Notes under the pieces: model-generated | Told to the model about the DNA's origin: nothing | Database searches by the model: none | What the model saw: only the letters and a program-made list of their open reading frames with translations | Position numbers and translations under genes: made by a program | Shown here: positions 16,405 through 29,007 of the stretch, one piece after another | How the letters are laid out: each line of letters begins with the position of its first letter | Numbering within the stretch: position 1 is the first letter of the stretch | Virus record (IMG/VR): IMGVR_UViG_2563366975_000004 | Direction: 5' to 3' (one strand) | DNA length: 35,452 nucleotides | Origin: a virus | Taxonomy: Duplodnaviria > Heunggongvirae > Uroviricota > Caudoviricetes

Positions 16405-16785
16405 ATGACTGAACGCATAGAATTTGTTTTGCCTTACCCGCCAACGGTGAACACTTACTGGCGTCGTCGTGGCAGCACATATTTTGTATCAAAAGCCGGG
16501 GAGCGTTATCGCCGGGCAGTGGCGCTTATTGTTCGCCAGCAGCGGCTGAAATTAAGCCTGTCCGGAAGGTTGGCAATAAAAATTATTGCAGAACCACCGG
16601 ATAAGCGCCGCCGTGACCTGGACAATATTCTGAAAGCGCCGCTGGATGCGCTGACGCATGCGGGGTTGCTAATGGACGATGAGCAGTTTGATGAAATCAA
16701 TATCGTTCGTGGTCAGCCAGTATCTGGTGGACGTCTGGGGGTGAAGATTTACCCCATAATGCATGAAGAGCAGGTCAAAAAATGA
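16405..16785 (+). CDS. rusA: Holliday-junction resolvase RusA (126 aa)
   Basis: N-terminal FVLPYPPTVNTYW and acidic catalytic region RRRDLDN...D typical of RusA. Confidence 0.85.
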   Translation: MTERIEFVLPYPPTVNTYWRRRGSTYFVSKAGERYRRAVALIVRQQRLKLSLSGRLAIKIIAEPPDKRRRDLDNILKAPLDALTHAGLLMDDEQFDEINIVRGQPVSGGRLGVKIYPIMHEEQVKK

Positions 16786-25621: not shown

Positions 25622-25966
25622 ATGACTCAAAACTATGAACTGATTGTGAAAGGGATCCGCAATTTTGAGAATAAAGTTACGGTAACTTTAGCGTTACGGG
25701 ACAAAAAACGCTTTGACGGTGAAATTTTTGACCTGGACATCTCGCTGGACCGTGTTGAAGGTGCCGCGCTGGAGTTTTATGAGGCAGCAGCCAGAAGGAG
25801 CATCAGACAGGTCTTCCTGGATGTTGCTGCCGGGTTATGTGAAGGGGATGAGCAGTCGCCGGAAAAGCGCCCCGTAATTTTAGAGGCGCAGGATGTGTTG
25901 ATAACCTACAGAGGAAAACTACCGGGAATAATTACTGGTTCTCTGAAGAGTCCGCCGAAATGGTAA
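25622..25966 (+). CDS. Hypothetical protein (114 aa) inserted between holin and endolysin
   Basis: GGGGAGAG RBS; no family recognised. Confidence 0.5.
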   Translation: MTQNYELIVKGIRNFENKVTVTLALRDKKRFDGEIFDLDISLDRVEGAALEFYEAAARRSIRQVFLDVAAGLCEGDEQSPEKRPVILEAQDVLITYRGKLPGIITGSLKSPPKW

Positions 25967-26204
25967 TTTTACCAGCATATTTTTCATCCAGTAATACAGC
26001 AAGCCGCCTGAAAGAGTCTTGTTGTTCCTGAGACCATTTGGGATTGCATGATTCAAACTGGATTGATGCCAGCGTTGATTGCATCTGTTCCCTTGGAATT
26101 GAGAATGCCAGATATGAGAAGGCGACGGTAAGGGTATTCACGTCTTCCCGAAGCCTGGAAATGCTGTCGAGCAACTCCTGTAGAGAAATGGTGTTATTGT
26201 CCAT
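25932..26204 (-). CDS. Hypothetical protein (90 aa), convergent with the preceding gene
   Basis: GAGGA 6 nt upstream of ATG on the minus strand; 3' ends of the two genes overlap by about 35 nt. Confidence 0.5.
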   Translation of the reverse strand: MDNNTISLQELLDSISRLREDVNTLTVAFSYLAFSIPREQMQSTLASIQFESCNPKWSQEQQDSFRRLAVLLDEKYAGKITISADSSENQ

Positions 26205-26309
26205 AAATAATCCTCATGATTGTATTGACCTGTTAGCAGCCTGAGGCAACAGGCTGGAACTGATAAACATATCCAGGGCTCAGAAACCGATAAATCCTGA
26301 TAAATATCC

Positions 26310-26843
26310 ATGAACGCAAAAATCAGATACGGCCTGTCGGCTGCCGTTCTGGCGCTGATTGCCGCTGGTGCGCCTGCGCCTGACATTCTCGACCAGTTTC
26401 TGGATGAAAAGGAAGGTAACCACACCACGGCATACCGTGATGGCGCGGGTATCTGGACCATCTGCCGCGGTGCCATCCTGGTGGATGGCAAACCTGTCGT
26501 TCCGGGCATGAAGTTGTCGAAGGAAAAATGCGACCGGGTTAACGCCATTGAGCGTGATAAGGCGCTGGCATGGGTGGAGAAAAACATCAGAGTGCCATTG
26601 AGTGAACCCCAGAAAGCGGGGATCGCGTCATTCTGTCCGTACAACATTGGCCCCGGTAAGTGTTTTCCGTCGACGTTTTATAAACGAATTAATGCAGGTG
26701 ATCGCAGGGGAGCGTGTGAGGCGATTCGCTGGTGGATTAAGGACGGTGGCAGGGACTGCCGTATTCGCTCAAATAACTGTTACGGTCAGGTATCCCGTCG
26801 TGACCAGGAGAGCGCGCTGGCGTGCTGGGGAATCGACAGATAA
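26310..26843 (+). CDS. Endolysin, lysozyme (GH24-like) with N-terminal signal-anchor-release-like segment (177 aa)
   Basis: N-terminal Gly/Ala-rich weakly hydrophobic segment GLSAAVLALIAAGAPA; catalytic E...D...T arrangement (DEKEGNHTTAYRDGAGIWTICRG). Confidence 0.85.
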   Translation: MNAKIRYGLSAAVLALIAAGAPAPDILDQFLDEKEGNHTTAYRDGAGIWTICRGAILVDGKPVVPGMKLSKEKCDRVNAIERDKALAWVEKNIRVPLSEPQKAGIASFCPYNIGPGKCFPSTFYKRINAGDRRGACEAIRWWIKDGGRDCRIRSNNCYGQVSRRDQESALACWGIDR

Positions 26844-26933
26844 GCAGAATATTTTGCTAATAAATGACGTTGGCCAAGGCGGACGGATAACACGAAATCC
26901 TGCGAACTGGCAAAATGTAAGTGAATAAAAGTA

Positions 26934-26972
26934 AAAACCCCGTTTGTTGGCAGCAAGCGGGGTTTTGTTTTT
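26934..26972. terminator. Hairpin with flanking A- and T-runs (possible bidirectional terminator)
   Basis: aaaaccccg ... cggggtttt stem with about 15-nt loop, T-run downstream and A-run upstream. Confidence 0.4.
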
Positions 26973-27037
26973 ATGGCAGTAAGCTATGGGAGGCTGCCTT
27001 GATTGATTTTAGCAAACTGATTAGGGAGTTGCGACTC

Positions 27038-27133
27038 ATGATTAGTCAATTACCAAACTGGAAATTTTTGCTGGTCTGGAGCATCCCTTTTTTATGGGTA
27101 GTATCCCAGTTAATTGTGGCAATTAAGGGGTAG
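27038..27133 (+). CDS. Micro-ORF 1, hydrophobic peptide (31 aa; not in ORF track)
   Basis: MISQLPNWKFLLVWSIPFLWVVSQLIVAIKG; GGGAG upstream. Confidence 0.3.
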   Translation: MISQLPNWKFLLVWSIPFLWVVSQLIVAIKG

Positions 27134-27135
27134 CT

Positions 27136-27267
27136 ATGTCAGACAAACTCATAACGCCGGCAAAGGTCCTGTGTGTGATTGTCGGTATTTCATTTTCACT
27201 AATGCTGGTTGCTCTTTTTCTGTCCCTCGCCTGGGTGATGTTGTCTTCGTCGGGGCTGCTGGGGTGA
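27136..27267 (+). CDS. Micro-ORF 2, hydrophobic peptide (43 aa; not in ORF track)
   Basis: MSDKLITPAKVLCVIVGISFSLMLVALFLSLAWVMLSSSGLLG; AAGGGG RBS 6 nt upstream. Confidence 0.35.
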   Translation: MSDKLITPAKVLCVIVGISFSLMLVALFLSLAWVMLSSSGLLG

Positions 27268-27386
27268 CAGTGACTGATGACATCAGCAGAGCGCTGGCTT
27301 TTGCTATTAAGTGGGTGGCTGTTGGTATTGCTGTGTCTCCGATGCTGTATGGGCTGGCAAAACTGGTCATTGCGCTGAAATCGTGA
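27264..27386 (+). CDS. Micro-ORF 3, hydrophobic peptide (about 40 aa, GTG start)
   Basis: VTVTDDISRALAFAIKWVAVGIAVSPMLYGLAKLVIALKS; start overlaps stop of micro-ORF 2 (GTGA); paralogous to micro-ORF 4. Confidence 0.3.
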   Translation: MTVTDDISRALAFAIKWVAVGIAVSPMLYGLAKLVIALKS

Positions 27387-27397
27387 ACTTTAAAAAG

Positions 27398-27484
27398 ATG
27401 AGTGCTGAACTTATTCGGGCAATGGCATTTGCCATTCGTATTGTGGCCATTGCTGTTCTGGTCTGGGCAATCCGTTGGTGGTGA
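27398..27484 (+). CDS. Micro-ORF 4, hydrophobic peptide (28 aa; not in ORF track)
   Basis: [28 protein letters not shown]; stop overlaps Rz start (TGATATG). Confidence 0.3.
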
Positions 27485-27485
27485 T

Positions 27486-27980
27486 ATGAACCGTGTTCTG
27501 TGTGTGGTGATTATTGTCCTGCTGGTAGCCTGTGGTGTGCTTAGTCTGGGGCTGAATCATTACCGCGATAACGCCATCACCTACAAAGCGCAGCGCGATA
27601 AAAAAGTCAGTGAGCTGAAACTGGCGAACGCGACAATTACTGATATGCAGATACGCCAGCGTGATGTCGCTGAACTTGATGCCAGATACTCGAGGGAATT
27701 AGCCGATGCGAGAGCTGAAAATGAAACTCTGCGTGCTGATGTTGCCGCTGGTCGTAAGCGCCTGCGGATCAACGCCACCTGCTCCGGTACCGTGCGTGAA
27801 GCCACCGGCACCTCCGGCGTGGATAATGCAACCGGCCCCCGACTGGCAGACACCGCTGAACGGGATTATTTCATCCTCAGAGAACGGTTGATGACAATGC
27901 AGAAGCAGCTGGAAGGGGCGCAGGAATATATCCGCACTCAGTGCACTAAGCTGGCTTTTTATTATCCGGAGGATACATGA
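27486..27980 (+). CDS. Rz-like i-spanin (164 aa from internal ATG)
   Basis: N-terminal TM segment then coiled-coil-rich periplasmic domain; contains embedded Rz1-like ORF in +1 frame. Confidence 0.7.
27706..27891 (+). CDS. Rz1-like o-spanin lipoprotein embedded in Rz
   Basis: Lipobox LVVSAC followed by proline-rich sequence; entirely within Rz in another frame. Confidence 0.65.
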
Positions 27981-28201
27981 AGAAATTACGGGTAACCGTA
28001 GAACCTTTTCAGGGAACAATTCCGTTCCGTATTTTGCAGCGTGGTCGTGTTCTTGTTGAAGGTTCGTTCAGTGGTAAATGTACGCAATTACACTCCCGGA
28101 CCTTTCAGGTGAATGCCACGAATGAAGAGCTAACCGTGGAGTGTACGATGAATGCCGCTAAATGCCGCATGGTATCCGCTGCATTACAACCAGTGTGTTG
28201 A
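27977..28201 (+). CDS. Hypothetical protein (74 aa)
   Basis: ATG overlaps Rz stop; no family recognised. Confidence 0.3.
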
Positions 28202-28399
28202 GCGACCTTATTATCCATGCGCGGTATTGTCGCCGTATTCCTGCATTAACAGAGACCGCAGCCCGACAGGGAGACTCCTCTGCGCGAGTGTGCGGGGATA
28301 ATCAAAAACGATACACACCGGGGTTTACCGCGTTAACGGAGCGCGGCGTTGTCCCCTCATAGTCGCCTGTCCGGTGCGATGGTGGAAGAAACCGAACGT

Positions 28400-28600
28400 T
28401 CATTTCTCGTTATTTGTCATGCTGGCCGGGCGCAGATGCGTTGCATCTGTTGCCAGCCTTCTCCTGCAGGCTTCAATAACCCACGCTGAAAAGTTACCGG
28501 ACCCTTTATGCTCAAGGGCGATGTTGATCTGTTCAATTATGTGATTGGGGAAACGGATATTGCGGGTTGTGGTTCTGCGGGTCCGGTTTTTCGATGACAT
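28400..28600 (-). CDS. Ribbon-helix-helix (CopG/Arc-like) DNA-binding protein (66 aa from internal ATG)
   Basis: AAGGA RBS 8 nt upstream of ATG at 28600; RHH-like segment NIRFPNHIIEQINIALEHKGSGNFSAWVIEACRRRL. Confidence 0.5.
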   Translation of the reverse strand: MSSKNRTRRTTTRNIRFPNHIIEQINIALEHKGSGNFSAWVIEACRRRLATDATHLRPASMTNNEK

Positions 28601-28641
28601 ATTTATTTCCTTTACTGATTGCCATATGACGGGGATTTTAC

Positions 28642-29007
28642 ATGGCTGAGCTTCGTACACTCCAGAGCAGAATCAAAACACTGAATACCCGACGGGTGAA
28701 TATTCTGAAGGGGGAGCAGCGTCGTGTCAGTGGCAGTGCACGTGTTTCCCTCAAGCGTCATATCTGGCTGAGGGACGCCGGGCAGTGCTGTATCTGTGGT
28801 CGTGTGGTTGACCTCTGTGACAGTGAACTCGATCACCGAATTGCACTTCAGTTCGGTGGTGGTAATGAGGAGACGAATCTTTGGACGCTCTGTGCCGAAT
28901 GCCATCGACAAAAGTCTGCTCGTGAAGCGGCGAGTGGTATGCCGGACCCGACGCTGCCGGAGGTGTCCGGAGGTAGTGGCAGAGAGGACGACATCATCGG
29001 ACTGTAA
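28642..29007 (+). CDS. HNH endonuclease (121 aa), terminase-associated
   Basis: CxxC...DH...N...CxxCH arrangement (CCICGRVVDLCDSELDHRIALQFGGGNEETNLWTLCAECH); immediately upstream of cos-like region and terminase genes. Confidence 0.8.
   Translation: MAELRTLQSRIKTLNTRRVNILKGEQRRVSGSARVSLKRHIWLRDAGQCCICGRVVDLCDSELDHRIALQFGGGNEETNLWTLCAECHRQKSAREAASGMPDPTLPEVSGGSGREDDIIGL

Follow-up and report, generated by a model that had tools for sequence, protein, structure and literature searches.

The lysis of lambdoid phage hosts is usually viewed as a solved three-step system of holin, endolysin and spanins; what, then, is encoded in the space that in some of these phages separates the endolysin gene R from the i-spanin gene Rz? 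The question is raised by a 35,452-nucleotide stretch of DNA (IMG/VR virus record IMGVR_UViG_2563366975_000004, hereafter the window), which represents the late region of a lambdoid, Shiga toxin (Stx)-phage-like E. coli prophage. A sequence-only reading had proposed that four consecutive short open reading frames (ORFs) fill the R-Rz space, and these are indeed present on the plus strand according to ORF calls, matches to PHROG families and a shuffle test, although 642 bp, not about 450 bp, separate the stop of R from the start of Rz, the initial ~155 bp being the R 3′ untranslated region (3′UTR) and a terminator. As judged from homologous loci, the segment is a mosaic array of four micro-genes that come from three phage-restricted families and sit in an accessory R-Rz slot; the same comparison indicates that the modules are recombined at their borders, and that related phages hold one to four of them in differing orders. 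The four ORFs, with product lengths in amino acids (aa), are:

26999..27133, plus strand: ORF1, 44 aa from TTG 26999, with a 31-aa form from ATG 27038; phrog_6632
27136..27267, plus strand: ORF2, 43 aa; phrog_4906
27264..27386, plus strand: ORF3, 40 aa from GTG 27264; phrog_1115/3246/4493
27383..27484, plus strand: ORF4, 28 aa from ATG 27398, or 33 aa from GTG 27383; ORF3 paralogue

It is very probable, on the comparative evidence, that these four ORFs are real genes. Selection was measured on the collected divergent homologues, and the ratio of nonsynonymous to synonymous change (pN/pS) was compared over six frames; the plus frame of the ORFs gave the lowest value in every family (0.21 for the ORF3 family, 0.07 for the ORF4 family, 0.51 for ORF2 and 0.50 for ORF1). 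The ORF3/ORF4 family is, by this measure, under strong purifying selection: pN/pS was 0.17-0.23 among ORF3 relatives (E. coli vs Salmonella, pS ~0.5, P ~9e-5) and 0.07 (P=4e-9) and 0.24 among ORF4 relatives, with 1.1 to 6 in the other plus-strand frames, and the variable sites fell on codon positions 1/2/3 as 10/4/27 (ORF3) and 8/2/14 (ORF4 relatives). Selection on ORF1 and ORF2 is only moderate, at ~0.29-0.67 (ORF1 0.29-0.50; ORF2 0.49-0.51). Codon position 2 was the least variable in all four families, on the plus-strand reading only (pooled binomial P=0.003), and ORF2 keeps 43-44 codons, its start codon and its Shine-Dalgarno (SD) sequence across three different upstream contexts. The reading frames are thus kept in homologous cassettes, the point on which the sequence-only reading had made its proposal depend, and this outcome favours genes.

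That the ORFs arose by chance, or that the region is really coded on the opposite strand or in a different frame, is hardly credible. The four-ORF chain spans all of 26999-27485, and none of 1000 mononucleotide shuffles matched this coverage or yielded a comparable chain. The other frames to be considered are a 73-aa ORF on the minus strand (27149-27370) and a 33-aa ORF on the plus strand (27277-27378). The antisense frame that shares third codon positions with the sense genes is open over ORF2 in all nine variants and its pN/pS is reduced there (0.54), which is what would be seen if a gene were read from it; nevertheless, such lowering is to be expected in the shadow of a sense gene, every family shows its lower pN/pS in the sense frame, and the shadow frame is interrupted by stops in ORF1 homologues and in one ORF3 homologue, so that the minus-strand ORF was rejected. 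The plus-strand ORF was rejected as well, with pN/pS of 1.4-1.5 and 4-6 stops per sequence in full-length homologues.

The comparison with relatives also corrects the first gene. ORF1 most likely starts at TTG 26999 (44 aa) and not at ATG 27038, because an SD sequence, GGGAGG (26988-26993), lies 5 nt upstream of the TTG, the N-terminal 'IDFSKLIRELR' is kept across genera, and 44-45-aa homologues are annotated from there; the length of 31 aa given by the sequence-only reading is therefore probably too short, while its 43, about 40 and 28 aa for ORF2 to ORF4 stand. Homologues in which the extension IDFSKLIRELRLM is conserved come from E. coli, Salmonella, Citrobacter, Enterobacter, Klebsiella and Providencia, and several of them are annotated as 44-45 aa. 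The product is laid out as a charged amphipathic N-terminus followed by a weakly hydrophobic helix, and some relatives terminate in (I/V)RWW, not IKG. A 70-aa form annotated by PGAP from GTG 26921 was rejected: it would cross the terminator stem, and the conserved family region begins only at its residue 28.

The overlapping stop/start junctions reported earlier (GTGA, TGATATG) are as described or tighter. ORF1 and ORF2 are joined by TAG-ct-ATG, the ORF2 stop overlaps the ORF3 start as GTGA, a second GTGA overlap connects ORF3 with ORF4 if the latter initiates at GTG 27383, and the ORF4 stop lies 1 nt before the Rz ATG (TGAtATG), the RWW-TGA end of ORF4 containing the SD-like sequence GGTGGTGA for Rz. 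A -1 frameshift fusion of ORF2 with ORF3 was considered and rejected, with no slippery heptamer seen on reading the sequence and ORF3 independent in phage PhiR5_2. ORF3 of the window lacks the N-terminal ~10-20 residues of its family prototype, and ORF4 has an alternative N-terminus, whose variant 'FK(K/Q)MSA(E/D)(L/F)IRA' is common to the homologues P0224 and P0238, and the C-terminus RWW.

All four products are annotated by PGAP/RefSeq as hypothetical (WP_001043230, WP_001280935, WP_042004856 and WP_032140280), and the PHROG families that they match are phage-only and all annotated as of unknown function. ORF1 matches phrog_6632 (E=1e-12 when read from TTG 26999, 6e-5 when read from ATG 27038), ORF2 phrog_4906 (E=4.5e-21), ORF3 phrog_1115, phrog_3246 and phrog_4493 (E=3.8e-27 to 7e-17), and ORF4 phrog_4493 (E=4.4e-7) and phrog_3246 (E=7e-5). 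The proposed paralogy of ORF3 and ORF4 is borne out by the two families that both match and by intermediate homologues, ending in RWW, that connect them; the prototype of the common family has 48-60 aa and reads 'MxKYKRILLRLTMKNGLExxAPVTDEISGAVAFAIKWVAVGIAVSPxLYGLAKLIIALKS', and full-length ORF4 relatives of 50-57 aa are found in GER2 and phiSTEC1575. This family is narrow: a profile search of 1.84 billion representatives gave 24 clusters at 50% identity, all of them close kin, and none linked the family to a known one. The peptides and the family prototypes, when all were scanned against Pfam (to E<=1), NCBIfam and PADLOC, gave no match, no peptide matched a holin-family profile in Pfam, NCBIfam or the annotated PHROGs, and Rfam at E<=1 gave none over 26700-27700. 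For ORF2, 103 hypothetical proteins were found at E<=0.01, and all source names given were E. coli; its homologue in E. coli O157:H7 EDL933 is annotated as EDL933_1392, which appears in a published study only as a length-matched annotated control, which is not evidence of translation (PMC4765031, supplement 1). The ORFs are unmentioned in a survey of Stx-phage lysis cassettes (PMC8136144), and a preprint on small proteins of uropathogenic E. coli held nothing relevant to the micro-genes.

How stable is this arrangement among relatives? At least eight R-Rz architectures were found, and representatives of each type were read directly (T, terminator; numbers, ORFs; L with a number, individual loci of the collection):

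T-1-2-3-4-Rz: the window
ant-1′-2-3-4-Rz: L008
ant-1′-2-Rz: Lys8385Vzw
ant-2-Rz: O104:H4 and O157:H7 Stx2a phages; EDL933_1392
T-3(full)-2-Rz: PhiR5_2
T-4(full)-Rz: GER2
T-1(RWW)-Rz: Salmonella phage SPN3UB; Escherichia sp. L091
methyltransferase-containing forms: L219, L256

The 75 IMG/VR loci with the closest Rz comprise 34 of the type R-1-2-3-4-Rz, 15 R-1-Rz, 15 R-4-Rz and six R-3-2-Rz, plus ant and methylase forms; every one of the 75 holds at least one micro-gene, and R directly abuts Rz in none. A 651-bp query across the R-Rz gap was covered to at least 80% in 587 of 5426 complete E. coli genomes, and 2078 genomes carried at least part of it. All 276 phage records that matched ORF2 in tblastn hold it at full length; most belong to Stx-converting phages, the gene is mostly unannotated in the records, and in those Stx phages of which the cassette was read it is directly followed by Rz. 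The Qin prophage of K-12 has no such insert, its rrrQ and rzpQ overlapping. Salmonella prophages carry a full-length ORF3 relative between a SAR-type (signal-anchor-release) lysozyme and Rz, behind a homologous UTR and terminator, while holin and lysozyme differ, and in phiSTEC1575 an ORF4 relative follows a different lysis cassette.

The slot holds larger genes as well. Methyltransferase-like genes of 255 and 311 aa (L219 1416-2183; L256 1269-2204) and one of two unrelated ant antirepressor genes (L084 1776-2345; L085 1790-2485) were seen there, always accompanied by at least one micro-gene, and on this account the R-Rz junction appears to be a hot spot at which cargo genes recombine. The gene to which the ORF4 relative of phiSTEC1575-Stx2k is coupled (TGAcATG) encodes not an Rz-type i-spanin but a predicted lipoprotein of 60 aa with the lipobox LLVGC (L089 1649-1831); this cassette has two holins and an M15 peptidase, and no obvious i-spanin. 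A second, unrelated family of hydrophobic 33-44 aa ORFs, with the motif G-W-G-W-(F/L), e.g., MSKRDVSALCFLMAAAVAISGNDGWGWLIFAGIIIL, overlaps the SAR-endolysin 3′ end and lies ahead of Rz in prophages of Salmonella, Enterobacter, Morganella and Trabulsiella; since it sits at the same place, the endolysin-spanin junction seems, from such comparisons, to be a general home for single-helix micro-genes. Its members are:

L090 1392-1502; L174 ~2215-2312; L137 2998-3117; L140 3016-3135; L156 2989-3111; L157 3004-3138; L101 2998-3123: second-family (GWGW) ORFs

When would the micro-genes be expressed? Three features bear on this:

26934..26976, plus strand: intrinsic terminator with a 15-bp stem, a 3-nt loop and a T tail (terminator scan)
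26844..26933, plus strand: R 3′UTR, with the core GGATAACAC at 26885-26893 (alignment of nine loci)
16782-17603: Q antiterminator, upstream of the lysis cassette

The hairpin with A/T runs noticed by the sequence-only reading is a strong intrinsic terminator; its stem-loop (26934-26966) has a folding energy of -23.8 kcal/mol (z=-4.83), none of 200 shuffles was equally stable, and given the A run upstream it is potentially bidirectional. An equivalent terminator stands ahead of micro-genes in L086, L088, L089, L090 and L174, which include an unrelated lysis cassette. A simple consensus scan of 25000-28700 found no plus-strand promoter-like site, and the promoter-like sites of the region numbered two, vs 4.5 expected by chance; one lies on the minus strand at 27142-27113 and has an extended -10. 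In the simplest relatives (PhiR5_2), ~33 nt separate the terminator from the start codon. The micro-genes are probably late, Q-dependent products, because the terminator stands upstream, no plus-strand promoter was detected, the spacing from terminator to start is so short, a Q antiterminator is encoded upstream, and stop/start overlaps join the genes. Q-modified, terminator-resistant polymerase would then be the sole route of transcription into the array and Rz/Rz1, and ribosomes would enter at the SD of ORF1 and pass by termination and reinitiation at the overlaps through ORF2, ORF3 and ORF4 into Rz.

Within the R 3′UTR, the core GGATAACAC(G/A)AAATC is conserved between E. coli and Salmonella phages. 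Just upstream of it, at ~26866-26880, there is a short element that varies between phages and is always palindromic (TTGGCCAA, GTGGCGCCAC, TGGCGCCA, GTTGACCAAC, GTTGGTCAAC), with which a cluster of single-nucleotide polymorphisms among close relatives (26859-26917) coincides. The element could be a protein-binding site or a small hairpin.

The peptides have 28-44 aa, a grand average of hydropathy of 1.1-1.6, a net charge of +1 to +3 and C-terminal tails of merely 2-7 residues (..IKG, ..SSSGLLG, ..LKS, ..RWW). Each had been described as mostly one transmembrane (TM) helix, of which the hydrophobic nature holds for all and a strongly hydrophobic TM segment for ORF2 alone; the crude Hessa sums, a rough calculation and not a topology prediction, were -3.5 for ORF2, -0.9 for ORF4, +1.4 for ORF1 and +3.4 for ORF3, the last three helices being weakly hydrophobic with embedded Arg/Lys. 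On the same scale the Rz TM domain (TMD) gave -4.1 and the SAR helix of the endolysin +3.1, which the ORF3 value is near. AlphaFold modelled the ORF3-family prototype as a short basic helix (3-15) and a 38-residue helix, with a predicted local distance difference test score of ~90 over the final 30 residues. The products are probably small N-in peptides of the inner membrane.

What could such peptides do? The genes between which they lie, and those of the same cassette, are:

25402..25617, plus strand: class II (phage 21 S-type) pinholin, 71 aa; Pfam PF04971 E=9e-33, PGAP 'class II holin family protein'
26310..26843, plus strand: SAR endolysin R, a phage lysozyme; Pfam PF00959 E=1e-23, PGAP 'lysozyme'
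27486..27980, plus strand: Rz i-spanin, translationally adjacent to ORF4; Pfam PF03245 E=2e-49
27706..27891, plus strand: Rz1 o-spanin inside Rz, with the lipobox LVVSAC (ORF list)

The reading we prefer, tentatively and at somewhat under an even chance, is that the peptides are non-essential membrane modulators of lysis by pinholin, SAR endolysin and spanins. They would be made together with these proteins and act within the membrane, where contacts of their helices with those of the pinholin, of R (its SAR anchor) or of Rz (its TMD) could alter the timing or the robustness of lysis, as positional analogues of the P2 antiholin LysA and in the manner of Mu gp25 or LambdaSo Lcc6. This reading draws on the late co-expression proposed above, on the recurrence of the micro-genes beside spanin genes in different cassettes, and on the second micro-ORF family at the same junction; moreover, with a terminator upstream, no plus-strand promoter in the scan and translation coupled to that of Rz, a late or lysis role is favoured over that of an exclusion factor or toxin expressed in the lysogen. 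An extension of it, which we consider unlikely, is a combinatorial toolkit in which each peptide binds a different membrane helix of the pinholin/SAR-endolysin/i-spanin pathway, ORF2 helping to time lysis and Stx release from enterohaemorrhagic E. coli (EHEC); that the toolkit peptides would form a class with no sequence relation to holins, antiholins, releasin or Lcc6 is, as part of it, held to be equally unlikely. Several points weigh against lysis modulation. The promoter scan was a simple consensus scan, and full-text literature searches found no paper on the peptides, their accessions or their PHROG ids. Single-pair selection tests of the moderately constrained ORF1 and ORF2 were non-significant or marginal (P 0.04-0.2), and ORF3 is frameshifted, and so dispensable, in phiSTEC1589. 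R abuts Rz, with no micro-genes between, in most related prophages of other species; one ORF3-family member stands after tail-fibre genes, outside any lysis cassette; and the ant and DNA methyltransferase genes that the slot also houses are not lysis genes, so that the position may reflect a recombination hot spot and be weak evidence of function.

The last three of these points are also what would be seen if the micro-genes were cargo unrelated to lysis, i.e., accessory membrane proteins whose genes came to lie in the late operon at a site prone to recombination, for example for superinfection exclusion, a block of DNA entry, interference with host membrane proteins or counter-defence. The modules are freely shuffled and missing from many related cassettes, and the site after the tail-fibre genes is a classic cargo site. 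Yet an exclusion factor would normally need expression in the lysogen, which the upstream terminator and the lack of a detectable promoter of their own make unlikely, PADLOC gave no match, and the genes recur beside spanin genes across different lysis cassettes; on balance cargo is somewhat less likely than lysis modulation, but a serious rival to it. A further explanation takes the frameshift in phiSTEC1589 together with the ORF3 of the window that lacks the family N-terminus: after insertions had parted Rz from R, the ORFs would persist mainly as spacers or relics that couple ribosomes into Rz and protect the mRNA, and the peptides, or at any rate those of the shortened ORF3 and ORF4 in the window, would be inactive. 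All junctions are stop/start overlaps or gaps of 1-2 nt, the end of ORF4 supplies the SD-like sequence of Rz, and the selection on ORF1 and ORF2 is weak, all as translation-only elements would have it. Inactive peptides would, however, hardly come under the strong purifying selection of the ORF3/ORF4 family (pN/pS 0.07-0.23, P 1e-4 to 4e-9), nor keep motifs conserved across genera and a hydrophobic helix in every family, and we regard this explanation as improbable.

The weak minus-strand promoter-like site brings in one more possibility, a type I toxin-antitoxin-like system in which membrane toxins are repressed by an antisense RNA, which would run from 27142-27113 to the bidirectional terminator and oppose ORF1 over ~170 nt. 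Small and hydrophobic, as would be expected of such toxins, the peptides are also cationic, the site has its extended -10, and A and T runs flank the terminator on both sides. Nevertheless, the two promoter-like sites of the region are fewer than chance would give, ORF1 as it occurs in Stx phages does not keep the -10, relatives containing ant would have an interrupted antisense unit, Rfam gave no match, and the scan found no promoter for the sense genes themselves, so that a system of this kind appears very improbable.

Lysis modulation, if true, would provide a phage group of medical relevance with new regulators that are easy to test. Lysis timing governs toxin release in Stx-converting phages, and a role of ORF2 in it would influence the timing and the amount of Shiga toxin released from EHEC. 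Mu gp25 and LambdaSo Lcc6 recently showed that pinholin/SAR systems can require extra small membrane proteins. If lysis modulation is false, the array is still an example of single-helix genes shuffled as modules. The existence of the genes is already on record in databases; the searchable literature yielded no mention of their conservation or modular shuffling, of the ORF1 start as corrected above, or of how nearly ubiquitous ORF2 is among the records of Stx phages.

The surroundings of the array are those of a rightward late operon, with terminase genes beyond Rz/Rz1. The N-terminus of R is MNAKIRYGLSAAVLALIAAGAPAP, a weakly hydrophobic signal-anchor, a YdfR-family gene lies between the pinholin gene and R, and Rz1 is annotated at the corresponding place in L170 and SPN3UB. 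Directly after the spanins there is another coupled small gene, a 74-aa ORF (27977-28201) that starts at an ATG overlapping the stop codon of Rz (ATGA); its annotation is hypothetical, and neither Pfam nor NCBIfam gave a match for it. A leftward 90-aa ORF (25932-26204, minus strand; PGAP hypothetical), located between YdfR and R and overlapping the YdfR 3′ end, stands within the rightward operon, its sole match being a weak one (E=0.037) to an anti-silencing protein Mip model. Farther upstream, an insertion sequence of the IS21 family (21661-23912, minus strand), consisting of IstB (PF01695, E=1e-61) and a 499-aa transposase with a Mu-transposase C-terminal domain, apparently splits a late-region gene into halves (20964-21770 and 24067-25251) that carry DUF1737 and DUF6645; related prophages have a SASA-family esterase there. 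Two tRNA genes (19277-19436) follow the Q antiterminator and a DNA methylase, one with the anticodon CAT and one Arg-TCG. ARAGORN assigns the former to Met, whereas the corresponding gene of a related prophage is tRNA-Ile according to PGAP; in that prophage the position of these two is occupied by three tRNA genes, one for Ile and two for Arg.

Finally, how do the micro-genes compare with known systems? Small membrane antiholins, namely lambda S107, phage 21 S71 and T4 RI, tune holin triggering, and T4 RI and S21 TMD1 have weakly hydrophobic SAR-type helices. The helices of ORF3 and ORF1 appear to be weakly hydrophobic and of SAR type too, but the known antiholins are holin isoforms or have periplasmic domains, and no sequence relation of the micro-peptides to them was found. 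Holins combine a TMD with a highly charged hydrophilic C-terminal domain, in place of which the micro-peptides have their tails of a few residues, and the window cassette already has its PF04971 pinholin. Spanins are likewise not resembled, as there is no lipobox cysteine context, periplasmic tails have at most 7 residues, and Rz and Rz1 are separately present. Lambdoid late operons also carry morons or cargo genes, e.g., bor and lom. With these the micro-genes share insertion between genes that are adjacent in related phages, association with a terminator and a patchy distribution (cf. ant in the Stx-phage slot); they differ in having no detected promoter of their own, a terminator upstream and not downstream, and coupling to the essential late gene Rz. 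As annotated here they are not strict morons, because their own promoter and a downstream terminator are lacking.

Closer parallels are found among accessory lysis proteins. The lysA gene of P2, a non-essential antiholin gene with four TMDs that lies between endolysin K and lysB, affects lysis timing (PMC3091744). Its gene order, Y-K-lysA-lysB-lysC, is alike in that the micro-genes also lie between an endolysin and an Rz-like spanin gene, yet LysA is one polypeptide of 141 aa vs four peptides of 28-44 aa in three frames, and the phage lineage and the type of holin and endolysin are unlike those of the window. Homology to LysA was rejected, the best BLASTP score of 19.6 bits (single sequence, no composition correction) being at composition level only. 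The Mu gp25 'releasin' (DUF2730) promotes SAR-endolysin release, is not a holin and is encoded a few genes from the SAR endolysin (PMC9239132). It is likewise a small membrane-anchored accessory protein encoded near a SAR endolysin; however, it has 99 aa, an N-out/C-in topology and a 73-aa acidic cytoplasmic domain, whereas the micro-peptides are far shorter, basic and probably N-in, and none of them matched DUF2730 in Pfam at E<=1. Lcc6 of Shewanella phage LambdaSo is a 65-aa single-TM protein, formerly without an assigned function, that is required together with pinholin, SAR endolysin and Rz-Rz1 (bioRxiv 10.1101/2024.01.23.576932). Compared by description, its gene lies far away from the lysis cassette, its TM segment is N-terminal and is followed by a cytoplasmic tail of 43 aa, and lysis cannot do without it, while the micro-genes lie inside the cassette and are clearly dispensable in many relatives. 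If the micro-genes do act in lysis, they would, by analogy, work most like separately encoded antiholins or accessory lysis factors.

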